Shown here in pieces: positions 660 to 21,610 of a DNA stretch of 64,000 bases; within the stretch, counting starts at the first letter, position 1; each line of letters opens with the position of its first letter. The DNA is from Eledone cirrhosa (lineage: Eukaryota). Location of the stretch: NCBI GenBank assembly GCA_964016885.1, contig OZ024763.1, positions 28,830,001-28,894,000 of the forward strand, in the 5' to 3' direction. The position numbers were made by a program, and so were the translations under genes. The notes under the pieces were generated by a model. It ran no database searches, had not been told where the DNA came from, and worked only from the letters and a program-made list of their open reading frames with translations.

Positions 660-2130
660 ATTTACAGCTCACACTTTTACAGGTTTATAGCTGGCCCCCA
701 ACATGGTTGCAAATCATAAGGAGTTTCTTTGGTGTTTTAATTATAGGGGACTTAGTCTATTATTGTTGTTACATGCTCACATTTATGCAAGTTTACCTGG
801 CCCCCAACATGGCTGCAAATCATAGGGAGTTTCTTCGGTGTTTTAATTATAGGGGACTTAGTCTATTATTGTTGTTACAGTTTAGCTGGCCCCCAACATG
901 GCTGCAAATCATAGGGAGTTTCTTCGGTGTTTTAATTATAGGGGACTTAGTCTATTATTGTTGTTACAGCTCACACTTATGCATGTTTAGCTGGTCCCCA
1001 ACATGGTTGCAAATCATAGGGAGTTTCTTCGGTGTTTTAATTATTGGAGCCCCAGCCTTAACTTATTGTTGTGACAACTAACACCTGGGCAGATTTAGTT
1101 GGCCTCCTACGTGGCTGCATCTCGTAAAATTTTTCTCGCGTGTTTTAATGATAGGGTCCTGTAACATCTCTCACCTATGCAGTATAGGTGGCCGCCTACG
1201 TGGTTGTATCGTAAGATGTTTTCTCGTGTGTATTAATGATAGGCTTGCCAGCCCTATCATCTTGTTACAGCTCTCAACTATGCACATCATCATCATCACT
1301 CGTCGACTACTGTCGAGATGATGGATCTCACTCTCATGCCCCAGAATCCCCTGTGCCCCATCGCTGCCCCCAGGTCCTGTCTGCTGATTCCCGTATCCCT
1401 AGAGATAACGTCAGGGAATGACAGCTTCCTACTCCTAGTCAGGCTGGAGTCAGGGTTCCAGAGCAAGAGAGCGGATATGATTTCATTGCTGGCACGGTGA
1501 CAGTGGCCAGCAAATTGAGCTCTCCGGGATTTTAGAAGGGCAGAGGCTCGAGGGAGTTTGCCATAGATTTTAGACAAGGTGGGATGTCGTTTCCAGGATA
1601 GGTTTTGCACTCTCATTAAGAGGCGGGTATATGTGCCATCCAATCTCCTCTCAAGTTGTGATGTTAGTGTCCAAGTTTCGGATCCATAAAGTAATATGGG
1701 CTTAATGGTTGCTTGGAGTATTTCCAGTTTTAGCTTGTGCAGATTTAGCTGGCCACATAAGAAGTTCTTCGAGAGTTTTATTTACTAATATGGTCCCCAA
1801 TCCTATCATGCTATGCAGGTTTAGCTAATCTTTAAGGAGGTTTCTCGAGTGTTTTTCATAATAGAGTACCCCAGTCCTGTCATGCTGTTACAGCTCTGCG
1901 CCATGCAGATTTAGCCGGCCTCATAGGTTGTTTCTCGAGAGTTTTAATAATAGGGTCCCCCAGTCCTATCATGCTGTTACAGCTCTGCGCCTTGCAGGTT
2001 TAGCCGGCATCATAGGTTGTTTCTCGAGAGTTTTAATAATAGGGTCCCCCAGTCCTATCATGATGTTACAGTTCTGCACCATGCAGGTTTAGCGGGCCTT
2101 CCATGAGTTTTCTCGTGTGTTTTAATGGTG
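660..2130. repeat. Degenerate ~80-110 bp minisatellite, interrupted by an RTE fragment
   Basis: Recurrent gtttagctggcccccaacatggctgcaaatcatagggagtttcttcggtgttttaattatagggg...gttacagctc units at 660-1284 and 1737-2130. Confidence 0.85.
1285..1736 (-). mobile_element. 5'-truncated RTE-clade LINE 3' end with (TGA)n tail
   Basis: Minus-strand translation ILLYGSETWTLT...RRLDGTYTRLLMRV...RRAQFAGHCHR...LLLWNP matches the RTE post-RT C-terminal region; stop followed by tgatgatgatg. Confidence 0.88.
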
Positions 2131-3839: not shown

Positions 3840-4415
3840 TAATAATAGTTTCTTATTTAGGCACAAGGCCAGTAATTTGGGGGGAGGGGGAATCGATTAA
3901 ATCAACCCCAGTGAGTTACTGGTACTTTATTTTATCGACTTCGTTAAGATGAAAAGCAAAGTTAACCTCGGTGGGATTTGAATTCAGACCATAAAGGGCC
4001 GTAACTCTATACTGCCATTTTAATAATAAAAATAATAATTGTTTCTACTTTAGGCACAAGGCCACCATTTTTGCCAGTGCATTACTGGTACTTTATTTTA
4101 TCGACCTCGTAAGGATGAAGGGCAAAGTTAACATCGGTGGGATTTGAACTCAGAACGTAAAGCGAAATAACTCTATGCTGAAAGGCACGTTATCCATTGT
4201 TCTGCCGACTCAGCCAATCCAAAATAATTGTTTCTATTTTTGGCACAAGCCAAGCAATCACTCAGTACATTACTGGTACTTTATTTTATCGACCCCCGTA
4301 AGGATGAAAGGCAAAGTTAGCCTCGGCGGGATTTGAACTCAGAGTGGCAAGGGCCGTAACTCTATGCGTCAAAGCATGGCATCCGACACTCTACCGATAC
4401 TGCCAATCCACTCTC
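3840..4415 (-). mobile_element. Head-to-tail cluster of about three family-A tRNA-type SINEs
   Basis: Reverse complement of the SINE core (tactggtactttattttatcgacccc...gatgaaaggcaaag...gatttgaactcag) three times. Confidence 0.85.
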
Positions 4416-4689: not shown

Positions 4690-4875
4690 AGGGCGGTGGA
4701 TTGGCAGTATCGGTAGAGGGTCGGACGCCATGCTTTCCAGCACAGTTACGTCCCTTTACGATCTGTGTTCAAATCCCGCCGAGGTTGACTTTGCCTTTCA
4801 TCCTTACGGGGTCGATCAAATAAAGTACCAGTAATGCACTGGGTAATTGCTGGCCTTGTGCCTAAAGTAGAAACA
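4690..4875 (+). mobile_element. Full-length family-A SINE (~190 bp) with 16 bp TSD
   Basis: A-box-like TGGCAGTATCGG, B-box GTTCAAATCC, core GCCTTTCATCCTTACGGGGTCGAT..AAATAAAGTACCAG; TSD ATTATTATTAGTATCA at 4674-4689 and 4876-4891. Confidence 0.92.
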
Positions 4876-4919
4876 ATTATTATTAGTATCATTGTTATTA
4901 TGTTTCATATATTTTACAG

Positions 4920-5491: not shown

Positions 5492-5708
5492 GTCGGGTGG
5501 TTCAGGATTGGTAGAGTAGCTGAATGAACCCTGGCTGGTCATCACCCCTATTGGGGAATTTTCCTTGTTGTATTTTTATTGTTATTTTGTTATTGTTATT
5601 TTGTTATTGTTATTTATATTGTTTACACGTTGTATATGTAAACTCCCACTGTCCCAGTCTTTTGTTTTGTCCCCTATATGTCGGCCCTTGTGGCAAATAA
5701 ATGAAATC
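5492..5708 (+). mobile_element. 5'-truncated copy (3'UTR only) of the Tx1 family at 10997-16852
   Basis: Aligns by eye to ~16618-16825, ending tcccctatatgtcggcccttgtggcaaataaatgaaatc(ATT)n. Confidence 0.9.
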
Positions 5709-5726
5709 ATTATTATTAACTATCAT

Positions 5727-5912
5727 AAGGGCGGTGGATTGGCAGTATCGGTAGAGGTTCGGACGCCATGCTTTCCAGCATAGTTACGTCCCTTTACCAT
5801 CTGAGTTCAAATCCCGCCGAGGTTGACTTTGCCTTTCATCCTTACGGGGTCGATAAAATAAAGTACCAGTAATGCACTGGTAATTGCTGGCCTTGTGCCT
5901 AAAGTAGAAACA
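5727..5912 (+). mobile_element. Full-length family-A SINE with 18 bp TSD
   Basis: TSD ATTATTATTAACTATCAT at 5709-5726 and 5913-5930. Confidence 0.92.
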
Positions 5913-6409
5913 ATTATTATTAACTATCATTAACTTTATATAAAATAAAGTACCAGTAATGCACTGGGTAATTGATGGCCTTGTGCCAAAAGTAGAAACA
6001 ATTATTATTAACTATTACTATGGTTATTCTTGGAGAATACGTTTAATCTTTTCATAGGAAGTAAACTAAAAAAAATAATAATAATAAAAATGTATTAAAT
6101 TAAAAAAAAAATGAATTATCATTAATTAATAAAATTAACACTAAAAAGAAATACATATAATAATAAAAAATGCTACAACCCAAAGGAAAACTTTTCAGAA
6201 GAACAAAAAAAAAACGATATAGCAATTGAAGTATCTTAAAAGAAGATTTATAGAACAAGAAAACGGTGCTTAAGTATTAATGGATTCGTAGGGACGCCGC
6301 TGTGGAAAATGGTGTGACGTGGTGTGTATTATAAAGTAAGTTGGATGAGTTCCTCCCCCCTCTCTTATATCTGAATAAAGTTGATTTCTTGTTCTTAGTA
6401 ATCGTCGTC

Positions 6410-7756: not shown

Positions 7757-7900
7757 GGCGTATGGCTTCGTGGTTAAAGAGTTGAATCCTGGATTCGTAT
7801 CCGTGAGGTTGTGAGTTCGAGACCCGAGTTGGGTTATGCGTTGTGTCCTTGAGCAAGACACTTTATTTCATGTTGTTTCTTTCAGACAGGAGTTGCGACC
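7757..7900 (+). mobile_element. Family-B tRNA-derived SINE, degenerate
   Basis: A-box TGGCTTCGTGG, B-box GAGTTCGAGAC, then TTGTGTCCTTGAGCAAGACACTTTATTTCA; related copies at ~9685-9920 (-), 55180-55411 (-), 59320-59450 (-). Confidence 0.75.
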
Positions 7901-8004: not shown

Positions 8005-9540
8005 ATGCTAGAAAGCATGGCGTCCGATCCTCTACCGATACTGCTAATCCACAAATAATTGTTTCTACTTTTGGCACAAGGCCAGCAATTACCCCAGTGC
8101 ATTACTGGTATTTTATTTTATCGACCCCGTAAGGATGAAAAGCAAATTTAACTTCGGCAGGATTCGAACTCAGAACCCAAAGGTCCATAACTCTATGCTG
8201 CAAATTATAGTGTCTGACGCTCTACCTATAATGTCAATCCACAGAAGGCCAACAGAAGGCCAGCAGTTTTAGTTGGAATCGAAATACAATTAAATTGTTG
8301 TTGGGTTAAATAGCCCTACAGCCCGCAACAGGTGGTAAGTACGGTTACTCTCTCTCTGCCATCACCAAAACCAAATTAAAAGATGGTTGAGGTCAACTAG
8401 GGAGGGGTTCATCCAACATGACTGAGAAGGCCCAGGATTACATTGGACTTTTTTTTTATAGACCATGGAAGATTGGAGGATAAAGCTGACGTTGGTAAGG
8501 TTTGAACTCAGGGCATAAAGAGCTAGAAATAATACCGCAAAGGTATTTTCTCCGACGCTCTACTAATTCTCACAATACACCACCACCCCTTAATGGTTTT
8601 TGATGTAGGCAACAATTTTTGCGAGGAGGGGAAAGTCGACTAAATCAACCCCCGTGCATTACTGGTACTTTATTTTAACGACCCTGTAAGGATGAAAGGC
8701 AAGGTTAACCTCGGCAGGATTTGAACTTAGAACGTAAAGGGACGTAACTATATTACGCAAAACATGTTGTCCAACGCTCTACCGATACCGTCAATCCACT
8801 ACCTTACACCCCTCTCCATAAATCGACTCATCCTCAGTATTTAAACCACCCCTCCATAATAATTGTTTCTACCTTAGGCACAAGACCAGCAATTTTGTAA
8901 GGGAGGGGAAAGTCGATTAAAATGATCCCAGTACATTACTGGTACTTTATTTTAACGACGCCCGTAAGGATGAAAGGCAAAGCTAACCACGGCAAGATTT
9001 GAACTTAGAACACAAAGTATGTTGTCCGACGCTCTATTAATTCTGCCAAGCCACCACCCCTTCCATAAATCGGCTCATCTCCAGTACATAACTGGTACTT
9101 CATACCACCGACCCCTGTAAGGATGAAAGGCAAAGCTAACCTCGGCGGGATTTGAACTCAGAACGTATAGGAGCGTAACTCTTACACAAAGCATCTTGTC
9201 CGATGCTCTACCGCTAATCTACTACCCGGCACCCCTCTCCATAAATCGACTCATCCACTATTTAAACCACCGCCTTCATAATAGTTATTCTTATTTAACA
9301 TTGGCACAAGGCCAGTAAGTTGGGTGAGGCAGAGAGCTGTTTATATCGACCTACCCTCAGTACATAACTGGTACCTTAAGCTATCGACACCGGGAAGAAT
9401 GAACGACAAAGTTGACCTCAGCAGGATTTGAACCTAGGACAGAAAAAGCCGGAACAAATATCAGAGACCATTTCCCGACGCTCTACAGATTCTCTCTAAT
9501 GAAAGGTTTCTAATTTAGGCACAAGGCCAGCAATTATAGT
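8005..9540 (-). mobile_element. Array of degenerate family-A SINE copies
   Basis: At least six reverse-complement SINE cores. Confidence 0.85.
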
Positions 9541-10454: not shown

Positions 10455-10996
10455 TAGAGTTACCTCCCTTTATGATCTGAGTTCAAATCCCGCCGAGGTT
10501 AACGTTGCCTTTCATCCTTACGAGGTCGATAAAATAAAGTACCAGTAATGCACTTGGATAATTGCTGGCCTTGTGTCAAAAGTAGAAACAATTATGGATT
10601 AACAGGATCGGTAGTGCGTCGGACATGTTTTGCAGCATAGAGATACGTCCCTTTACTTCCGAGTTCAAATTGATAAAATAAAGTACCAGTAACGGACTCG
10701 GGTCGATTTATTTGACAATCAAAAATTATTATTTGGCAGTTCAGTAGAGCGTCGGGCAACATATTTTGCGGCATAGAGATACGTCCCTTTACTTCGGAGT
10801 TCAAAGTTTAAATGCTGTCGAAGTTCGATTTTTCTTTCATCCATAGGGATGTCGATAGGGGTGGTTGATAAAATAAAGTACCAGTAATGCAGTGAGGTCG
10901 ATTTATCAACTCAACCTCCCCCCCCCCCCCAAAAAAAAAAGATTGTTTGGCCGTGTGCCAAAATCAGAAACGATTATTATTATTATTATTATTATT
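10455..10996 (+). mobile_element. Family-A SINE fragments ending in the (ATT)8 tract that precedes the Tx1 element
   Basis: SINE cores and tail ggccgtgtgccaaaatcagaaacg(ATT)8. Confidence 0.8.
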
Positions 10997-11206
10997 GACG
11001 AAAGTGGATGTACGTTTTTTGAAGCTCCGTGAGTAAGCAATTTTTGAGGATTAATTGTAGAGAATTGTTTATTTTTTGTACCGCTGAAGCATTATAAGAC
11101 ATTAATTTGTATCCTGTGAAGGAATAACTCATAATATTTGGGCCTTTTGGCCCAAATATTTGAACTTTATTTTGAAAAAAATAATAATTTTTTTTCTCAA
11201 AAAAAC

Positions 11207-13117
11207 ATGGCGGAGCCACGCCCCCTAGAGGCGGGTCTGCTGTCGTGCAACGGCGACTTGAGCGTTGAGAGGAGAGGTGAGGCGAGGAGCGCCACCAGCA
11301 CGAATGTGAGCAGCGACAGTGCCAGCACCAACGGGCCGAGCGGCGCGGAAGGTGGTAACAGCGACAACACCAACACCAACAAGCCGAACAGCGCAGAAGG
11401 TGGTAATAGCGAGAGCACCAACAAAACGAACAGCACAGAGAGTAATAGTAGCGACAGCAGCAGCACCAACAAGGCCAACAGCACAGAAGGTAACCACGAC
11501 ACAGGGGAGAACAACAACAGCAATAGCAGCAGCAACACCAACAAGAACAACAACAGTGACAACACCAACAAGAACACTTTCGCTGCTGTGGCAGCGGCTA
11601 AAAGGAGACCATGCTACAGCATCGACTTAACCAACAGAGAGGAAAAGTTGGCCCAGGCCTGGAAAATCATAAATCAAGAGCAGACCTGGGCAAACTTAAC
11701 TGTCCCGGCAGAAGCCATTGAGGCAGTGGAAAAAAGGACGGTGCATTTCAGATGCATCTCAGTAGAGACAAAGAGGGCAGCGATAATCGCCCAAGCTGAC
11801 ATAGAAGCCGCACTGAAATACATCAGAGAGGACACAGACTTCATAGAGAGGGGCAGGCAATACGGCACCGTTTCGGTGCTGTTCAAGTCTGAAGCCCTCG
11901 CTGTGAAGCATTCAATGACCCCTTGCAAAACCAGCAAGGTCATAATGTACCCCTCCCACATGGGAAAACGAATAGCACGTGTGCGCATTCCCAGGATTCC
12001 ACCAGGACTTGATATGTGGTGGCTCCTGGGTTGCGTAATCGTGGAAGGAACGGATACAGTCCCGGTAGAGGCAACGAGAACTGCCAGGGACGACTGGTCC
12101 GGGGTTGATCTGGAGATACTGCTCCAAATCAGACCCGAAAACGTAAAAACAATCCCGGACCACATCCGCCTCCAAAACGGGAGGGTGTTGCATATAATGA
12201 CTGAGGGCAAAAGGCCGCATTGTTTCCTTTGTGGGGAAACGACACACTTGCGAGCCTTCTGCCCTCAACTGCCGAAAAGCGCAAGGGGTCGAAAGATTCC
12301 ACTGCTGGCGACGCCGGGACAAGGACCACCAGCAACACCGTCAACAATGGAACCACCAAAATTGCACACCCAGGGGGGAAACGAGGAAAGCTCTCCCATT
12401 CCCCCTCCCCCCCAAAATACACACACGAACAAGAACATAAACACTCACTCAGACACAAACACGCTCACAGCCACAGACCCCTCATCCTCCAGCAGTGAAG
12501 ATGAGGGAAAACCAAAGTCCCCCAAAATACAAAAAACAAAACACAAAAAAAAAAGAAATCCACAAAGCACAAACACCCCCACAAAAAAAAATACACACAC
12601 CACCCACACAAACATTTTCCCCACAGCATCACCAACACAACCACCAAAATCCCCCAAACGCAAACAAGCTAAACAGACACAAGAACAAATAGACACACAA
12701 ACATCAGAAACTACAGACACCCCACCCACAACAAACGCAGACACAATAGAAACAACACTAACAAAGCTATCACCACCACAATCACACGAACAAATAAAAC
12801 CCGAGCAACAAAACATTAAAAACTTCGTGCTTGCCAGAAGGGCCAACAAGGAATTGATGGCCCATGTAGCACGAAGCACAAACATCGAAAAAGACGGGGA
12901 AACATTTGAAGCGAGCACATTTCGCGTACCAGATAATTTGCTTCTGATGCGAATGTCGCTCGCTTCATACAAAGAAATTCGAAAGAGCTTTCCTCGGGAT
13001 GTGGGAACCCCGAACGTAAAACCCACGTCAAGACTATTAAAGGGGTTCCCAAAAGAAACCCCACAAACCATGGAGGTCGAACCACCCGACCTTCACAAGA
13101 CCCCGGAAGGTAAGTAA
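11207..13117 (+). CDS. Tx1-type ORF1 (gag-like nucleic-acid-binding protein, 636 aa)
   Basis: First in-frame ATG in strong context AACATGG at 11207; N/S/T-rich N-terminus; zinc knuckle CFLCGETTHLRAFC (CX2CX4HX4C); P/T/K-rich linker. Confidence 0.9.
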   Translation: MAEPRPLEAGLLSCNGDLSVERRGEARSATSTNVSSDSASTNGPSGAEGGNSDNTNTNKPNSAEGGNSESTNKTNSTESNSSDSSSTNKANSTEGNHDTGENNNSNSSSNTNKNNNSDNTNKNTFAAVAAAKRRPCYSIDLTNREEKLAQAWKIINQEQTWANLTVPAEAIEAVEKRTVHFRCISVETKRAAIIAQADIEAALKYIREDTDFIERGRQYGTVSVLFKSEALAVKHSMTPCKTSKVIMYPSHMGKRIARVRIPRIPPGLDMWWLLGCVIVEGTDTVPVEATRTARDDWSGVDLEILLQIRPENVKTIPDHIRLQNGRVLHIMTEGKRPHCFLCGETTHLRAFCPQLPKSARGRKIPLLATPGQGPPATPSTMEPPKLHTQGGNEESSPIPPPPQNTHTNKNINTHSDTNTLTATDPSSSSSEDEGKPKSPKIQKTKHKKKRNPQSTNTPTKKNTHTTHTNIFPTASPTQPPKSPKRKQAKQTQEQIDTQTSETTDTPPTTNADTIETTLTKLSPPQSHEQIKPEQQNIKNFVLARRANKELMAHVARSTNIEKDGETFEASTFRVPDNLLLMRMSLASYKEIRKSFPRDVGTPNVKPTSRLLKGFPKETPQTMEVEPPDLHKTPEGK

Positions 13118-13146
13118 ACCTTTCCTCTCCCATTCATCCTGCCAGC

Positions 13147-16100
13147 ATGGCCATAAGAGTAGGAAGTTTAAATGTTCGTGGCCTGGGGTCGCCCTGGAAG
13201 CAAGGTCACTTGCTCAACGACCTCAGGTCACTAGGAATGGATGTAATTGCCATCAGCGAGACCAGAATTTCCGACACACGCGCACTGGCGCCGATTTTCG
13301 ACGATTATCAGATCTTTGCATCTGTTAGTCGGCCGGGAATGGGAGGTGGAGTGGCTGTGCTGTTTAGGAAATGTCTGGATCTCGAGGTAAGGTCAATCTT
13401 CCGGGATCCTGACGGAAAGTTGGTGGTCCTGGACGTGAGCAATAGCGAAGGTGGTGCCTTTAGACTGGTGGCCGTCTACGCCCCTACTGGGGCCGGTCGG
13501 CCGGACTTCTTTAGGCGCCTGGAAAACTTTCTGCTTACGTCTCGCCCTTTACTGTTAATAGGGGATTGGAATGGCATCTTAGAAGCACGCTGGGATTGTG
13601 TGGGAGTATCTGATAGGAGCGGGGGGTGCAAAAGCCTCAAGTACCTGATCAGCCAGTTTCAACTGTCTGACAGGTACCGACTAGATTTCCCTAATGCGCC
13701 AGTATGGACCTGGACCAATCGCATAGGGTCATCTAGATCGTACATAGATAGGATTTTCATTAGGAAAAGAGATAGAAATAGTGTAGGATGTCCACATTTT
13801 AAAACGGTTGCCTATTCAGATCACAAGCTTGTGATCTGTATGGTCGACCTAGATAAGACACGTAGGTTAGGACCTAGCTACTGGAAGCTAAACATGTCGT
13901 TTCCGGCACGTAAAGCTTACAGGGACCGGGTCAACAACTTAGTTAAGCAAAAGTTGACAGGGGGGGTTGTCAACAACAGGTGGTGGGGGGCACTCAAAAG
14001 AGAGATTAGAGCAACCTCGATAGGATTTAGCAAAGAAGTAGCAATAGAGAAAAATAGAAAGGAGGAGGGGCTGATAGCTAAGTTAGACGAGGCTATTTGT
14101 AGTGGCATTGCAACAGACGTGCTAGCGGCGAGAATGGCACTAGACCATTTCTTCAATGCGAAACACGAAGGTTGCATTGTCAGAGCTAAGGCGCGTGCTC
14201 TGAGGAACGAGGGAACCAAAGCTGCCCGATGGGCTCGCTTTGCAGAGACGCAGCGTGGAAATAAAACCACAATTCGGTCTTTGACGGATCGAGATGGACA
14301 CGAACTGAGCGATTCCAAGCAGATGTGTGAGGCCTTTCGCCAGCACTTTGCTCGATTGTTCGGGAGGATGGGTGAGTCGGAGACGGCGGCGGACTTCAGT
14401 CCCTACCTCGACGGCTTGCCACGCCTCTCGACGGCCGACGCTGAGCGCTGCGAAGAGCCGATAACATCAGCCGAAATTCAGGACGCCCTTGTCGGCTGCT
14501 CGAGTCGCAAGTCACCCGGTTTGGATGGTCTGCCCTACGAGCTTTACGTAAATATGCCAGACTTGTTCTCCGATCTCCTCGAAGCGCTCTACTGCAACTG
14601 GCAGCAGAACGGGAGCATTCCCAGTTCTGTGAGCCGTGGCGTAGTGACGCTGATAAGGAAAGACGAGAACAAGAGGGACACACTAGATAATTTCAGGCCC
14701 ATAACCCTGCTCAACACAGAGTTTAAGATTTTGGCCAAGGTGTTAGCGAAAAGGTTGGCGCTTGTCGTCAAAGATTTGGTTGGGGAGGCGCAAACTTGCG
14801 CAATCCCGACCAGGTCCATACACGACAACCTCCACCTCATGCGATACATCATAGAGAGGGTTGGGTGCAAACCTGGCTTCGGTGGGGCTCTGATCAATTT
14901 AGATCAATCGAAAGCATTCGATAGGGTCGACCATCGGTACTTGGAGGCTGTCCTCGAGGCGGCTGGCTTCGGCCCCGTCTTCAGAAGCTGGATCGCTGCA
15001 ATGTACAACGGCATCCGCTCGGTGGTCAAAGTTAATGGCCACCTCTCGGAACCGTTTCAGATCTCTCGATCGGTCCGTCAAGGGTGCCCTCTCTCCTCAC
15101 TTCTGTACGTATTGACTCTTGAGCCTCTACTGCGGAAGCTGGAGTTGTTGCAGGGCATCCCGCTCGAACCGGGACGTAGAAAGGCTGCGTCCGCTTATGC
15201 GGACGACATCACCGTGATGGTGTCGGACACCTCGGAAATCGAGGTGATCCGCACCCATTTGGAGGAATATGAAAGGTTGACGGGAGCAAAACTTAACCCG
15301 GAAAAGTCGGTGGGCTTGCAGCTCGGCACCTGGAGAGGCAAGTCCATGCCGTCCAACAGCGTCGTTGGGCGCTGGACAGACGGACCGGTAAAGTTGCTCG
15401 GGGTTTGGTTCGGACCAGACCTCCAGGTGGATAAGAATTGGGACGAGGTGACGAGCAGGATAGCCAACCTCACCCAGAAATGGGCTGAGAGAAAGCTATC
15501 ACTGAAAGGGCGGGCGGAGGTGGCGAACGCGTACATCGCGTCCGTCATCTACTACCGCCTGACCGTCGTGCCTTGCACCCGTCCACGCCTCGCCAATTTG
15601 GAACGGCTCCTTTTCAAATTTTTGTGGAGGGGACGGGTCCCGTTGGTGAGGCGGTCCATCTGCTGCCAGCACCCTCTTCGTGGAGGGCTGGGCATGCCGT
15701 GGCTAATGATGCGCAGACATGCGCTGAGGCTGCGACATCTCCAGATATTTTGCCTAAACGGTGAACAGGTGTGGTCGCCGTTTGTTAGACGGGCCTTTCC
15801 GCAGCTCATCTCTTTGACTGAGCTGCAGTCCTGGGTCAAGAAGAGACCGAGACTGGGCGACTGGCATCTGGAATGTTGCCAGGCGCTCACTGCACTCTGC
15901 AAGGTGGGCAATGCGGTCAGTGGAACTTCCACTCAAGATTTCTATAGAGGATTAGTGGAGGGCAAGTGCGATGACGTACTAGGAGAGGCTCTGGGCGTCA
16001 ACGAAGTAGAACTGACCAGTATGTTCCGGAGGACTTTCGAGCCGGGGACGATGGATAACTTCCAGAAATCCCTCGCTTGGCAGTGCTACCGGGGGGCGCT

Positions 16101-16566
16101 GCCGGTTCGGGATAAACTCTACAGGCACGGAAGTGCTGTCAGACGAACCTGCCCGAGATGCGCGCAGAGCGACGAAACCGTTCTGCACGCACTCGTCCAG
16201 TGTCCGTGCATTGCTGACTTGTGGGGTTATGTCGAACAGCTATTGTCGCGTGTAGAACGGATCCGGCTATCGTCCGAGTCCATAGTGAAGATTGACCCGC
16301 CGCCTTCTTTTGGTCAGGAAGGGCAGGCAATTTTCCTCTGCCTGGTGGCAGTAGCGAAAGAGGTTGCATGGTGGACCAGGTTGAAAGGACTGAAGACAGA
16401 CACTTTTCTCTTCGGCCAATCCCTCATCAACTTCTTCAAGTTTCACTTGGAAAGGAAGGTGAGGGTGGAGAGAGAAGTGCTGCCCCCCAGTACATTTACT
16501 GAAAGGTGGGTGAATGTGGCGAGAATGGCCCGCGTGAGTGGGCCTACTCTGATCATGCGCCTGTAG
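13147..16566 (+). CDS. ORF2: APE endonuclease, reverse transcriptase and C-terminal CCHC finger (1139 aa)
   Basis: APE motifs SLNVRGL, ISET, VYAP, GDWN, YIDR, SDH; RT motifs KSPGLDG, FRPITLLN, LDQSKAFDRV, VRQGCPLS, YADD; CPRC-x8-H-x4-C; no stops or frameshifts. Confidence 0.97.
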   Translation: MAIRVGSLNVRGLGSPWKQGHLLNDLRSLGMDVIAISETRISDTRALAPIFDDYQIFASVSRPGMGGGVAVLFRKCLDLEVRSIFRDPDGKLVVLDVSNSEGGAFRLVAVYAPTGAGRPDFFRRLENFLLTSRPLLLIGDWNGILEARWDCVGVSDRSGGCKSLKYLISQFQLSDRYRLDFPNAPVWTWTNRIGSSRSYIDRIFIRKRDRNSVGCPHFKTVAYSDHKLVICMVDLDKTRRLGPSYWKLNMSFPARKAYRDRVNNLVKQKLTGGVVNNRWWGALKREIRATSIGFSKEVAIEKNRKEEGLIAKLDEAICSGIATDVLAARMALDHFFNAKHEGCIVRAKARALRNEGTKAARWARFAETQRGNKTTIRSLTDRDGHELSDSKQMCEAFRQHFARLFGRMGESETAADFSPYLDGLPRLSTADAERCEEPITSAEIQDALVGCSSRKSPGLDGLPYELYVNMPDLFSDLLEALYCNWQQNGSIPSSVSRGVVTLIRKDENKRDTLDNFRPITLLNTEFKILAKVLAKRLALVVKDLVGEAQTCAIPTRSIHDNLHLMRYIIERVGCKPGFGGALINLDQSKAFDRVDHRYLEAVLEAAGFGPVFRSWIAAMYNGIRSVVKVNGHLSEPFQISRSVRQGCPLSSLLYVLTLEPLLRKLELLQGIPLEPGRRKAASAYADDITVMVSDTSEIEVIRTHLEEYERLTGAKLNPEKSVGLQLGTWRGKSMPSNSVVGRWTDGPVKLLGVWFGPDLQVDKNWDEVTSRIANLTQKWAERKLSLKGRAEVANAYIASVIYYRLTVVPCTRPRLANLERLLFKFLWRGRVPLVRRSICCQHPLRGGLGMPWLMMRRHALRLRHLQIFCLNGEQVWSPFVRRAFPQLISLTELQSWVKKRPRLGDWHLECCQALTALCKVGNAVSGTSTQDFYRGLVEGKCDDVLGEALGVNEVELTSMFRRTFEPGTMDNFQKSLAWQCYRGALPVRDKLYRHGSAVRRTCPRCAQSDETVLHALVQCPCIADLWGYVEQLLSRVERIRLSSESIVKIDPPPSFGQEGQAIFLCLVAVAKEVAWWTRLKGLKTDTFLFGQSLINFFKFHLERKVRVEREVLPPSTFTERWVNVARMARVSGPTLIMRL

Positions 16567-17237
16567 GCTGGTGAATTCGAGAAGGAGAGGGGTGCCCTTC
16601 CCGGGTGCCCTAGGAGCGTCGGGTGGCTCAGGACTGGTGGGGTGCTTGAGTCAACCCTGGGTGGTGATCCCTCTTATTGGGGAACTTTCATTGTTGTATT
16701 TTTATTGTTATTTTGTTTTTGTTTTTTTGTTATTTATACTTACTCGATCTCTATGTAAACCCCCACTGTCCCTGTCTATTGTGTTGTCCCCTATATGTCG
16801 GCCCTTGTGGCCAATAAATGAAATCATTATTATTATTATTATTATTATTATTACTACGATGGATTGGCAGAATCGGTAGAGCGTCGAACAACATGCTTTG
16901 TGGCATAGAGCTACGTCCCTTTACGGTCCAAGTTCAAACGACGCTGAGGTTAGATTTGCCTTTCATCCATAGTGATGAGGTTGGGGAGGGGAGCGGGTTC
17001 CATAAAATAAAGTACCAGTAATGAACTGGGGTCGATTTAATCGACTCCCCCCCCCAAAAAAAAAATTACTGGCCTTGTGCCTATACTAGAAATAATTATT
17101 TCTAGCACTTCTACCACAGGATGAAAGGTTAACTTTGCCTTTCGTCCTTACAGGGTCAATGAAATAAAGTACCAGTAATGCACTGGGGAAGGTTGCTGGC
17201 CTTGTGCTAAAAGTAGAAAAAAATATTTCCAGCACTT

Positions 17238-17635
17238 CTTGTGACTACCTAGAAATGTTTCTGATAACCGTGTGGGAATAAAACCCAATGAAAGCAGTAG
17301 TGGCTGATGCAGTGGGTAATGCTGGCTCTTCTCCGCGTAATGAAGTTTGTAACCACATAGAGATGTTTTTGATAACCGTGTGGGATAAATGTCTTCCCAA
17401 CGACCACTTCATATTACGAGAAATGCATACCAGTTAAACAGTAATGGCTGATGCAGTGGGTAATGCTGGCTATTCTACACGTAATGCAGCTTGTGACCAC
17501 ATAGAGATGTTTTCGATAACCGTGTGGGATAAATCTCTTCCCAATGACCACTTCATATTACGAGAAATGCACATCAGTTAAACAGTAATGGCTGATGCAG
17601 TGGGTAATGCTGGCTGTTCTACACGCAATGCAGCT
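17238..17635. repeat. ~144 bp tandem repeat, two full units plus one shorter unit
   Basis: catagagatgttt..gataaccgtgtggga...tggctgatgcagtgggtaatgctggct recurs. Confidence 0.85.
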
Positions 17636-18365
17636 GAGATTTGCCCCTCGACTGGGGTTCCTTTACATTTTTTAATAATTTATTTTCACTTTCTTTGTTC
17701 GATTTTTGAAAGAATAAACAAACGTTGATAATTTTATAAATGCCTTGTTGACTTTGCCTTTCATCCTTACGGGGTCGATAAAATAAAGTACCAGTAATAC
17801 ATTGGGGTAATTGCTGGCCTTGTGCCTAAAGTAGAAACAATTATTAATAAAGTTTAGGGCGGTGGACTGGCAGTATCGGTAGAGGGTCGGACACCATGCT
17901 TTGCAGCATAGAGTTACGGCCCTTTATGGTCTGAGTTCAAATCTCGCCTAGGTTAACTTTGCCTTTCATCCTTACGGGGTCGATAAAATAAAGTACCAGT
18001 AATACACTGGAATAATTGCTGGCCTTGTGCCAAACGTAGAAACAATTATTAATAAAGTTTATGTCAGGGTGATGGATTGACAGAATCGGTAGAGCAACGG
18101 ACATGTTTTGCAGCAGAGAATTGTGCTTATTTACGTTTTGAGTTCAAATCCACTCGAGATTAGCTTTGCCTTTCATCTTTACAAGGTCGTAAAATAATGT
18201 ACCAGTAATGCACTGGTTCTATTTAATCAACATTTACCTCCCCCAAAGGGCGGCGGATTGGCATATCGGTGGAGGGTCGGACGCCATGCTTTCCAGCATA
18301 GTTACGTCCCTTTACGATCTGAGTTCAAATCCCGCCGAGGTTGACTTTGCCTTTCATCCTTACGG

Positions 18366-18622
18366 GGTCGATAAAATAAAGTACCAGTAATGTACTGGGT
18401 TATTGCTGGCCTTGTGCCTAAAGTAGAAACAATTATTAGTGGTCGATAAAATAAAGTACCAGTAATGTACTGAGTTATTGCTGGCCTTGTGCCTAAAGTA
18501 AAAAGAATTATTAGGGGTCGATAAAATAAAGTACCAGTAATGTACTGGGTTATTGCTGGCCTTGTGCCTAAAGTAAAAAGAATTATTAGGGGTCGATAAA
18601 ATAAAGTACCAGTAATGCACTG
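18366..18622 (+). repeat. 75 bp tandem repeat made from the SINE 3' half (about 3.4 units)
   Basis: ggtcgataaa at 18366, 18441, 18516, 18591. Confidence 0.9.
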
Positions 18623-18963
18623 GGGGTTTTTATCAACCCCCCCCCCAAAAAAAAAATGTTTGGCCTTGTGCCTAAATCAGAAATGATTATTATTATTATT
18701 ATTATTATTATTACGATGGATTGGCAGAATCGGTAGAGCGTCGGACAACATGCTTTGCGGCATAGAGTTACGTCCCTTTACGTTTCCAGTTCAAATGCCG
18801 CTGAGGTTAGATTTGCCTTTCATCTATAGTGATGAGGATGGGGAGGGGGTGGGGGCTCGATAAAATAAAGTACCAGTAATGAACTGGGGGTAGATTTAAT
18901 CGACTTTGCCTCCCCCCCCCCAACTCGGAAAAAAATTTGTTAGCCATATGCCAAAATCAAAAA

Positions 18964-18995
<32 letters not shown>

Positions 18996-19455
18996 GTTTG
19001 ACAGTAATCGGTAGGGCGTTGGACACCATGCTATGTGGCATAGAGTTACGACCCTTTACGTTCTGAGTTCAAATCACGCCGAGATTAGCTTTGCTTTTCA
19101 TCCTTCAGGAGAATTTAATGGACTTTGCCCCCCCTCCCGCCCCCCACACAAAAAAGAATATATTGGGGATGCGCCTAATTCAGAAAACATTATTATTATA
19201 TTATTATTATTATTATTACTATTATTGCTACGCTGGATTGGCAAAATCAGTAGAGCATCGGACAACATGCTTTGTGGCACAGAGCTACGTCCCTTAAGTT
19301 TATGAGTTCAAATCTCGCCGAGGTTAGCTTTGTCTTTCAACATTACGGGGGGGGGGGGGGTCGATAAAATAATGTACCAGTAATACACTGAGGTAATTGC
19401 TGGCCTTGTGCCAAAGTAGAAACAATTAATTTGGTCTTGTGCTTCATAGTAAAAA

Positions 19456-19492
<37 letters not shown>

Positions 19493-19944
19493 CACTACGG
19501 TGGATTGGCAAGTTCGGTAGAGCATCGGACATGCTTTGCGGCATATAGCTACGTCCCTTTGCATTGGAGCTGATAAAATAAAATACCAGTAACATACTGG
19601 GTCGATTTAATCGACTCTGCCCCCCCCCCTACCAATAAAAAATTATTGTTGGCCTTGTGTCTAAATCAGAACCCATTATTATCAATAAATATCTATCTAT
19701 CTATAGATATGATCGATGTTGTAGCAGAATCGGTAGAGCATCCATCAAAACGCTTTGCATTTTTTTCCAGCTCAAATCCCACTGGGGTTAAAATAAGGCG
19801 GGGTGGGGTGGGTGGGGGGGGCATAAAATAAAGTATCAGTTATATATTGGGGTCGATTTAGTCGACTGCCCCTTTTCCCAAATTGCCGGCCTTGTGTCTA
19901 TATCCGAAAGAATTTATTACTAAATTATAAATTATATGTTTACA

Positions 19945-20248
19945 CTGAGGATGAAAAACTCAGAGCTGTATGGGAGCATCCCAAAAGTCAGCTCAAAAGT
20001 GACACAGAGGAGACTGAGGTTGGCTGGACATGCTCACCGACATCCAGAGTTGACATTGCACTCAGTACTCCTTTGGGAGCCCCTACATGGACACACTAGA
20101 AGAGGAAGACCAAGGTTAACGTATGTTGATGCCCTAAGGACAGACACTGGTCTGTTGGAGATGCAGGACATGGCAGCGATAATGAGGGACAGAGACCGCT
20201 GGAGAGAACTCGTCTATGGATCTCGGGAATTTTACCCGCCTTAGATAG
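19945..20248 (+). mobile_element. 5'-truncated RTE-clade LINE 3' end with 11 bp TSD
   Basis: RRLRLAGHAHRH...LLWEP...RGRPRLTYVD...MRDRDRWR; (TAGA) tail; TSD ATATGTTTACA at 19934-19944 and 20249-20259. Confidence 0.9.
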
Positions 20249-21610
20249 ATATGTTTACATTTGAAAGATAGAAGTTAGTTTGATTGGACACAAAAGACAA
20301 ACATTGTTTAAGAATCGTTTATCGAATTTTATTTCCATGCTGATTTCAGGGTCTGATTTTAGGGAGAGAGATGGTCGAATGGATTTGGCTGCTGTTTTTA
20401 GCAGGACGATTGACCACGTTGACGTTCTGCTGTTGACTTGTAAATAAATAAATAAATTGAATTGATATGGCGTTTTTGTTGTTATTATTTTTATTATTTT
20501 GTCTTAAGCCAGCCCTTACCGGGAAGACATGTGATGAAGGTGATCCAAACATGGCCATCACGGCTAAATTTATTTTAGGAGAAAGCTCACATCAACATCC
20601 CATATATTATATATATATCAAACATAAGCGATCGAATTTATTTATTGATCTATTGATTTATTCAATCAGTATTCTACATTTTAAAATAATTAAATAATAA
20701 ATATTTCACTTTGTGAAACTTAAAAATTCATGTTTGGTAAAGATACTGTAACAATATATCATAACAAAACACGTATTATGTTATATCATGTACTATTTTC
20801 CAGTTACACCGGTTTTGTTAACCAATCAGCGGTCGTTTGACGCCATTAGTTTTTGCCACCTGTGTCCCAGCATGACGTCTTATTTCATAGTTGCTACACT
20901 TGTCTAAAATACTTGTGGCAAAAGCACGCCTACCAAGTAAAAGAAATAATAACTGAACAGGTGAGACATTTAATGTTTTACAAATGAAAAACTGAGTGAA
21001 GTTGACTTTAATTATGAACACAGAGATGATTTTTAACGGTATTTATCACAGCATATAGTTACGGCGTGTAAAACTATGTTGAAGAAACTTTTAACGTTGA
21101 CACAGCTTGTTGATACTACCTTACGTAATTTTAATTTTTATTATTACATCTATATCGGAGACTGGTATAATTATAAATATTTACCCTACATAGATTGACT
21201 TAATGTCAACAAATTTGTCAAAAGTATTCATCTGAATTTAGCAGAAAAAAAAAACCCATAGAATATAACCACAACAACACATGCTTTTGAAAATAGAAGC
21301 TTTATTTAATATTTTATTTGATTTGACACATAAAAAAATGTACCAGCCAAGCACCGGTGTCGAAGTTTAGTCTATATCTCTTTCTTGCTTCTATTCTCTC
21401 ATTCTTTATCCTTCTCCGTAAGAAATCTACTGTAGTTAGAGCTGGAGAAGAAAAGGGCTGACAGGCTTTAAAAATGCCCTAGAAACGCCGTAACAACATA
21501 GTGCGTCTCTTCGACTATCTGGGGGGGGGGGGGTTACAGGGCCATAAATATTATGTATGTAGCTTATATTTATCTACACAGAGGGAATAATATTGACTGT
21601 AAACAAATTT

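Follow-up and report, generated by a model that had tools for sequence, protein, structure and literature searches.

The L1 group of LINEs has been described as the exception to the rule that SINEs and LINEs share 3' tails, and the available part of PMC3747384 counts 3 tail-sharing SINEs per more than 800 families, all of them in green plants. The plant pairs are ZmSINE2 and ZmSINE3 with LINE1-1_ZM and SINEX-3_CR with L1-1_CR (Ohshima 2013, PMC3747384), and tail sharing within this group has been noted in maize, sorghum and Chlamydomonas (PMC3747384; PMC3472496). In these pairs, as at the locus described here, the SINE 3' end is similar to that of an L1-group LINE, a likeness that was read as stringent recognition; as far as the accessible texts allow the comparison, the present case differs in its animal host, its (ATT)n ends, its shorter match and a shared hairpin that is unsupported.

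A partnership of Tx1 and a SINE as such is already published, without a shared tail, since SINEU was inferred to be mobilised by Tx1-Mar in crocodilians from the targets that the two share (Kojima 2015, PMC4494074). Going by the portion of that paper at hand, the likeness to the present locus lies in a Tx1-clade LINE being inferred as the mobiliser of a SINE, in a common target preference and in tandem SINEs around a target duplication. SINEU elements have snRNA heads, poly(A) tails and a Mariner target, and no LINE is given there as sharing the SINEU-1 3' end, whereas the SINE here has a tRNA-like head, a tail resembling a LINE end and an (ATT)n target. Insertion into a simple repeat that is regenerated by the element's own end is also known from the Tx1 families Kibi, in (TC)n, and Koshi, in (TTC)n (PMC4494074), and from Dong, in (TAA)n (PMC3812793). 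An (ATT)n-targeting Tx1 is not named in the parts of these two papers that were available; strict (ATT)n specificity of the LINE here is only a possibility, as 2 of its 4 copies in the 64-kb stretch of DNA that was analysed (hereafter the window) have ATT where their 5' end joins the flank, a small sample beside the criterion for a target-specific Tx1 in PMC4494074, which asks for more than 20% of copies.

The SINE resembles the UCON3 SINEs (Kojima 2020, PMC7245038), in which a tRNA-like head is followed by the UCON3 body; the hosts listed in the accessible portion of that work are Chordata, Nematoda, Cnidaria and Xenacoelomorpha, not Mollusca, and the tails of the hagfish members are RTE-like, CR1-like or unassigned. 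It also resembles the bivalve SINEs (Martelossi 2024, PMC11481361), which are mollusc tRNA-derived SINEs with short LINE-like tails, but the partner LINEs given in the available text are CR1, CR1-Zenon, L2 and Nimb, not Tx1. The word 'Tx1' is absent from the text and supplement of PMC5786205 and from the main texts of PMC4824008, PMC11481361, PMC7245038 and PMC3531059, and the available parts of PMC8967140 and PMC4758252 name no Tx1-SINE pair. No animal SINE with a Tx1-derived tail was found in the literature searched, most subscription papers, Repbase and Dfam lying outside that search, and the pair may already be annotated in Repbase or Dfam.

The window is of animal origin and has many microsatellites and other repeats, and all counts given below are limited to this one 64-kb window unless stated otherwise. 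The LINE features in it are the following.

10997-16852, plus strand: full-length intact L1/Tx1-group LINE, within the (ATT)n that separates two head-to-tail SINEs.
11207-13117, plus strand: ORF1, 636 aa, no internal stops, with a CCHC zinc knuckle CFLCGETTHLRAFC.
13147-16566, plus strand: ORF2, 1139 aa, no internal stops, with APE endonuclease, reverse transcriptase and zf-RVT (Pfam PF03372, PF00078, PF13966).
16796-16825, plus strand: the part of the LINE 3' tail that resembles the SINE tail, with the GGCC-CTTGT-GGCC hairpin at 16800-16812 and AATAAA at 16813-16818.
5492-5717, plus strand: 5'-truncated LINE copy, 84% identical to the full copy, whose ATT tail hosts a young SINE.
24504-24631, plus strand: old LINE 3' fragment (67%), whose tail ends after the hairpin, with a 5'-truncated SINE behind it.
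28311-28611, plus strand: diverged LINE 3' fragment (70%), beginning immediately behind a SINE ATT tail.
1290-1781 (minus), 19940-20250 (plus) and 39395-41266 (minus): other LINE fragments, two of which we take from their motifs to be RTE-like and one CR1-like, the latter with a 598-aa open RT frame.

The full-length copy is flanked by (ATT)8 at 10973-10996 and (ATT)9 at 16826-16852, and the fragment at 28311-28611 terminates in GAAACAATT, the same end as that of the short SINE. With two ORFs, and with APE, RT and a C-terminal zinc-binding region in ORF2, the element has the make-up of the L1/Tx1 group. The closest solved structure to ORF2 is human L1 ORF2p (E=4e-113, profile positions 3-892), R2 was matched at E=6e-37, and L1 and R2 were the sole full-length structures matched. 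The nearest named relative of ORF2 is from Argonauta hians, with 67% identity, which makes an octopod the likely host; none of the named Tx1 references (Tx1L, Keno, Kibi, Koshi) was among the protein matches of the LINE. ORF1 had no Pfam family match, and its RRM-like region comes from look-alikes only (Atlas; zf-CCHC and ZCCHC3 RNA-binding domains, 0.90-0.92). An ORF1 with RRM/zf-CCHC instead of Transposase_22 is given as a Tx1 trait in the available part of PMC5203782. Since ORF1 fits this type (the CCHC is seen, the RRM is a look-alike), the LINE likely belongs to the Tx1 clade, as against other L1 lineages. The 5' UTR holds a perfect 12-bp hairpin at 11133-11160 with a GGCC-TTTT-GGCC core, which recalls the hairpin of the 3' tail. 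The end of ORF1 (13109-13117) reads GGTAAGT, like a 5' splice donor, and relatives with 41% identity in ORF2 have GGTAAGT or GGTGAGT close to the end of ORF2.

Among the other repeats, a stretch at 41600-47100 is composed of RTE-5'-like sequence alternating with (TA)n/(TACA)n microsatellite in repeated units, which apparently arose by tandem duplication. Near-perfect long inverted repeats, MITE-like or fold-back, lie at 22672-22763 and 55640-55850, the second sharing sequence with 34230-34470.

The SINEs of the window amount to about 8.8 kb in 42 core units. Representative copies, clusters and a second family are listed below.

22471-22662, plus strand: typical short-subfamily SINE, with a tRNA-like head (A/B-box-like), a UCON3 body and a LINE-like tail at 22629-22662.
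4691-4891, plus strand: young SINE with an exact 16-bp target duplication starting with ATTATT, outside any earlier tail.
5729-5930, plus strand: young SINE (5729-5911) with an exact 18-bp target duplication (5709-5726, 5913-5930) starting with ATTATT.
3842-4411, minus strand: head-to-tail SINE cluster.
8005-9536, minus strand: head-to-tail SINE cluster of older copies.
10455-10996, plus strand: SINE cluster 5' of the LINE, the (ATT)8 tail of its final copy being the 5' flank of the LINE.
16857-19922, plus strand: SINE cluster 3' of the LINE, including a SINE (17857-18043) within the tail of the preceding SINE, with a 17-18 bp duplication.
24636-28316, plus strand: SINE-rich region, largely a tandem duplication of about 1.7 kb.
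7790-7880 (plus), 24370-24440 (plus), 55270-55400 (minus) and 59330-59440 (minus): CORE-like SINE family.

The main family shows dispersed copies, a common 3' end, a simple-repeat tail, 5' truncations and target duplications, and is divided into a short and a long subfamily. The B-box GTTCAAATCC was present in all three young copies examined and the A-box-like head was recognised by eye; ARAGORN and Rfam gave no tRNA and no other family at curated score in 3800-29000. The body, about 50 nt directly behind the tRNA head, is by alignment the UCON3 domain: the copy at 5729 and SINE2-1_CrH (Fig. S2 of PMC7245038, the part of the paper used for this) are identical in 39 of 49 columns, aligned by eye. 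A CORE, Meta or V identity was rejected for this SINE, as no likeness to the BivaCORE, BivaMeta and BivaV alignments (PMC4824008 supplement) was seen by eye. The second family has a CORE-like body, which by eye is like BivaCORE, and is distinct from the UCON3 SINE. Octopus SINEs, OR1 and OR2 among them, were reportedly described by Ohshima and Okada in 1994, and the UCON3 SINE might be one of these. The second, CORE-like family is perhaps the published octopus CORE-SINE.

Both the LINE and the SINE look young: the LINE has intact ORFs, and four short-subfamily SINE copies are 96-97% alike, the copy at 5729 being 97% identical to those at 4697 and 18255. In Octopus vulgaris, recent activity has been counted for 13 L1-Tx1 families and for 4544 SINE insertions (PMC13282606, part of which was available); SINEs are reported scarce in squids and cuttlefish in the accessible part of PMC8967140.

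The earlier note had proposed that the SINE 3' tail resembles the Tx1 3' end. The three end strings that it quoted were all located in the window: the LINE end is exact at 16796-16831 and has one mismatch at 5679-5714, the older LINE end is exact at 28577-28611, and the SINE end gave 18 matches with at most 3 mismatches, exact at 8054-8087 (minus) and 22629-22662 (plus), where 100 shuffles give an expectation of 0. In a hand alignment of LINE 16796-16828 with SINE 22629-22659, 23 of 33 columns are identical with two 1-nt gaps; without the last ATT the count is 20 of 30, so that the identity is about 67-70% across about 30 nt, in register with the (ATT)n. The two gaps lie on opposite arms of GGCC-CTTGT-GGCC, which becomes GGC-CTTGT-GCC in the SINE. 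Tail matches of bivalve SINE-LINE pairs are 35-61 bp long at 72-95% in the available part of PMC11481361, and the match found here falls just under that range.

The significance of this likeness depends on how it is measured. When a profile built from 36 SINE tails was run in nhmmer without anchoring, the LINE tail came up only at a non-significant E=2.7, and local alignments of single LINE and SINE copies (18 pairs) gave p of about 0.002-0.2. The profile was also scored anchored at the base preceding the ATT run, 3' anchoring being a prior set by the hypothesis; 36 of 44 anchors were kept, the 8 removed being 2 LINE tails, 1 non-SINE site and 5 duplicates. On this scale the three intact LINE ends scored 15.1, 12.1 and 10.0, against a null mean of about -17 and 17-53 for the SINE tails themselves. 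These scores were reached by 0 of 3000 shuffles for each of the three ends, by 1, 2 and 4 of 15000 natural 40-mers, and by 0 of 684 AATAAA-anchored 40-mers. When 108,170 non-SINE positions were scanned, the three LINE ends ranked 2nd, tied 3rd and 6th, with a chance match within ORF1 above them. The two RTE-like ends (two end positions each) and the one CR1-like end of the window scored -6 to -27 and did not match. The likeness is thus real and in register, short and weak; it stands when the 3' ends are anchored and is lost in the unanchored search. Homologous 3' tails are a criterion of a stringent SINE/LINE pair, and the anchored test, weak as the match is, speaks for such homology.

Sequences from elsewhere bear on the LINE end. 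Among the public-run matches listed, the LINE was found in 20 of 24 rows, from 13 studies. In 3 of 4 other samples coverage of the bin 16775-16805 exceeded that of the mid-UTR by several-fold to 30-fold, depth being a weak measure here (summed contig depth or reduced-representation reads, with 16816-16900 left out as repeat), and in one sample some 3800 reads have the same last 90 nt or so of the LINE attached to a different UTR. Because the terminal bin is deeper than the mid-UTR and a different UTR is joined to the same end, these reads suggest that the LINE end is conserved across subfamilies.

Relatives at about 41% ORF2 identity terminate in AATAAAATCAT, resembling AATAAATGAAATCAT of the LINE here; their array units end in TGTAAATAAAATCAT, of which the last motif is common with the LINE, the rest of the tail being absent. 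The shared last motif suggests that the LINE has this end as its own, and this favours it somewhat as the donor. The relatives come from contigs of a bacterial MAG, uncultured Arenicella sp. (CAXXMW0100000xx; L056-L098, L101-L103), many of which carry head-to-tail arrays of intact L1/Tx1-group LINEs with a period of 6.4-6.8 kb, an ORF1 with CCHC and an ORF2 with 41% identity to its counterpart in the LINE here. They are likely animal host DNA filed there, and their arrangement suggests insertion that is self-targeted or site-specific. In four relative loci, no RNA gene was recognised by Rfam. Only distant relatives, mostly 23-51% in the best segment, were present among 55 metagenome and 48 genome loci, and no ATT repeats stood behind the best 12 profile peaks in relative loci. 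Viral contigs contained no ORF2 relative and gave 0 matches for the SINE core or the LINE tail pattern.

Folding gave a different result for the LINE and the SINE. The pairing probability of the tail hairpin was 0.86-0.99 in the full-length LINE copy, 0.26 and 0.0 in two older LINE copies, and among seven SINE copies 0.01-0.19 in six and 0.42 in one. None of 10 tail sequences was more stable than its shuffles (z -1.2 to +0.9), and the compensatory change found by eye between the LINE and SINE families was a single symmetric indel pair. A stem-loop common to both, for which the earlier note had proposed this folding check, was accordingly not borne out, being predicted in the LINE and mostly absent from the SINEs. 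In terms of these models, ORF2 more likely recognises a linear tail with (AUU)n than a shared hairpin.

Exact, unique target duplications of 16-18 bp that start with ATTATT were observed in 4 of 19 SINE copies (4691, 5729, 17857 and 25314), two of which sit within an earlier tail, the copy at 5729 in that of a LINE and the copy at 17857 in that of a SINE. The other 15 copies have no exact long unique duplication: for several of them the match is short or pure repeat, one copy is within (TA)n, and others show none. The claim that every insertion duplicates an ATT site hence holds for these four and is contradicted by the young SINE located in (TA)n at 34511. Of 32 SINE heads, 14 have ATTATT in the 30 nt upstream, compared with a background of 2.4%, and in the reverse orientation it occurs at 0 of 32. 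Runs of (ATT) of at least three units lie at an element end or head in 19 of 22 cases (17 by script, 2 by eye). A unique target duplication was absent from all four LINE copies; the full copy sits in pure (ATT)n, and the copy at 5.5 kb has no ATT at its 5' junction.

Neighbouring elements tend to lie on the same strand, with 19 of 21 pairs once duplicated copies had been removed (p=6e-4; 23 of 25 before removal), and a same-strand SINE adjoins the LINE copy in 4 of 4 cases. Target-primed reverse transcription, in which the (AUU)n end of the RNA pairs at a nicked ATT site, predicts such stacking. Each ATT-started insertion leaves a new ATTATT immediately after it, and SINEs and LINEs that came later occupy those runs on the same strand, so that much of the head-to-tail stacking would be explained in this way, the remainder being tandem duplication at the DNA level. 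The four SINE clusters that had been pointed out do exist (3840-4415 and 8005-9540 on the minus strand, 16853-19920 and 24630-28310 on the plus strand). Their proposed origin from self-renewing ATT sites is favoured by the ATT-started duplications and the same-strand stacking and applies to only part of them: 24630-28310 is mostly tandem duplication, 24636-26649 and 26337-28316 being 93.6% identical over 2022 columns, and at 18441-18590 a piece from a SINE 3' end forms a 75-bp tandem repeat. Nesting of Tx1 in SINE tails was seen for the full-length copy and perhaps for the copy at 28.3 kb, whereas at 5.7 kb and 24.6 kb it is the SINE that stands behind a LINE tail.

At 25298-25683 one exact 16-bp target duplication encloses two SINEs, an internally deleted copy and a full one. 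Since the inner junction of this pair is identical to the junction at 24760-24782, its sequence suggests a read-through dimer that was retrotransposed as a single unit. No run of four T was found in the three young SINE copies examined, and because of this RNA polymerase III would be expected to read through the SINE tail.

The mechanism that we propose would begin with transcription of the SINE by RNA polymerase III and binding of the LINE ORF2 protein to the 3' end of the SINE RNA. The ORF2 endonuclease would then nick the bottom strand at an ATT-rich site, where a primer ending in AATAAT could pair with the (AUU)n end of the RNA, and a second nick 16-18 bp away would give rise to the target duplication. 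From the sequence comparisons, we consider with moderate confidence that a Tx1-lineage LINE, this family or a sister, donated the SINE tail and mobilises the SINE.

Another octopus LINE, most plausibly Dong-R4 or a family of L2/CR1 with an (ATT)n end, might instead mobilise the SINE, the Tx1-like element merely sharing the ATT sites and a loosely similar end. Dong elements target TAA microsatellites, one of them in a snail (PMC3812793), Dong-R4, with 1129 insertions, heads the recently active LINE groups of O. vulgaris (PMC13282606), both according to the parts at hand, and BivaCORE-SINE2, an L2-tailed bivalve SINE, likewise ends in ATT repeats (PMC4824008 supplement); the weak Tx1-SINE match (the E=2.7 and single-pair p values given above) also leaves room for such a LINE. 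No Dong copy was seen in the 64-kb window, where the LINE ends compared were RTE-like and CR1-like, and neither of these types matches; L2 is absent from the recently active O. vulgaris LINEs in the available part of PMC13282606. As another mobiliser would not account for why all three intact LINE ends match in register, we regard it as unlikely. Somewhat less likely still is that the likeness of these short A-rich ends came about by convergence or chance, with a SINE tail of other origin, for example an RTE-derived remnant as in the hagfish UCON3 SINEs. The non-significant unanchored search speaks for this reading, and the internal CCTGTGCCAAATCAG of hagfish SINE1-1/SINE2-1 agrees in 15 of 17 columns, by eye, with the long-subfamily tail (window 18661-18680; supplement of PMC7245038), where the RTE-driven hagfish SINEs are also given duplications of about 17 bp in the part available. 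However, the hagfish piece is internal and followed by about 50 nt of RTE 3' end, a stretch that the octopus SINE does not have, and this motif likeness was noticed post hoc; the RTE ends of the window score -10 to -27, and chance fails the anchored test at about 1e-4 to 3e-4.

The direction of transfer could also have been the reverse, a LINE lineage landing in SINE arrays having captured the SINE tail by read-through or template switching, in which case the likeness would reflect a shared site and not a partnership. The full-length LINE is indeed situated inside a SINE array, and Tx1 families acquire sequences shared with SINEU heads and target other repeats (PMC4494074, accessible part). 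This is nevertheless the most improbable of the three alternatives in our view: the conserved end of the LINE reaches about 50 nt upstream of the shared part, AATAAA(TG)AAATCAT resembles the end of the 41% relatives, which belong to another organism, and diagnostic bases common to 3 LINE copies set the LINE tail apart from both SINE subfamilies. We keep to donation of the tail by the Tx1-lineage LINE as the probable direction.

In the O. vulgaris genome SINEs make up 11.6%, and of its 900 recently active SINE families 893 have no classification (PMC13282606, from the part available); because most of these families are unclassified, it is useful to have a partner LINE for a SINE that is young and abundant locally. 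Self-renewing target stacking is already known in kind from tandem SINEU-3 (PMC4494074, in the text at hand), and the literature searched gave no case of shared-tail pairing for this LINE group in animals. The fullest form of the proposal, in which an animal Tx1-clade LINE strictly recognises a non-poly(A) tail and drives a major octopus SINE family while both seed their own (ATT)n sites, is one that we advance only tentatively and hold to be doubtful as a whole. With an intact LINE copy from an animal, the choice between stringent and relaxed recognition comes within reach of a cell assay. If the pairing is true, stringent template recognition in the L1/Tx1 group would extend from green plants to animals, its being the ancestral state that mammalian L1 has lost would be supported, and what drives some of the SINE expansion in octopus would be identified.
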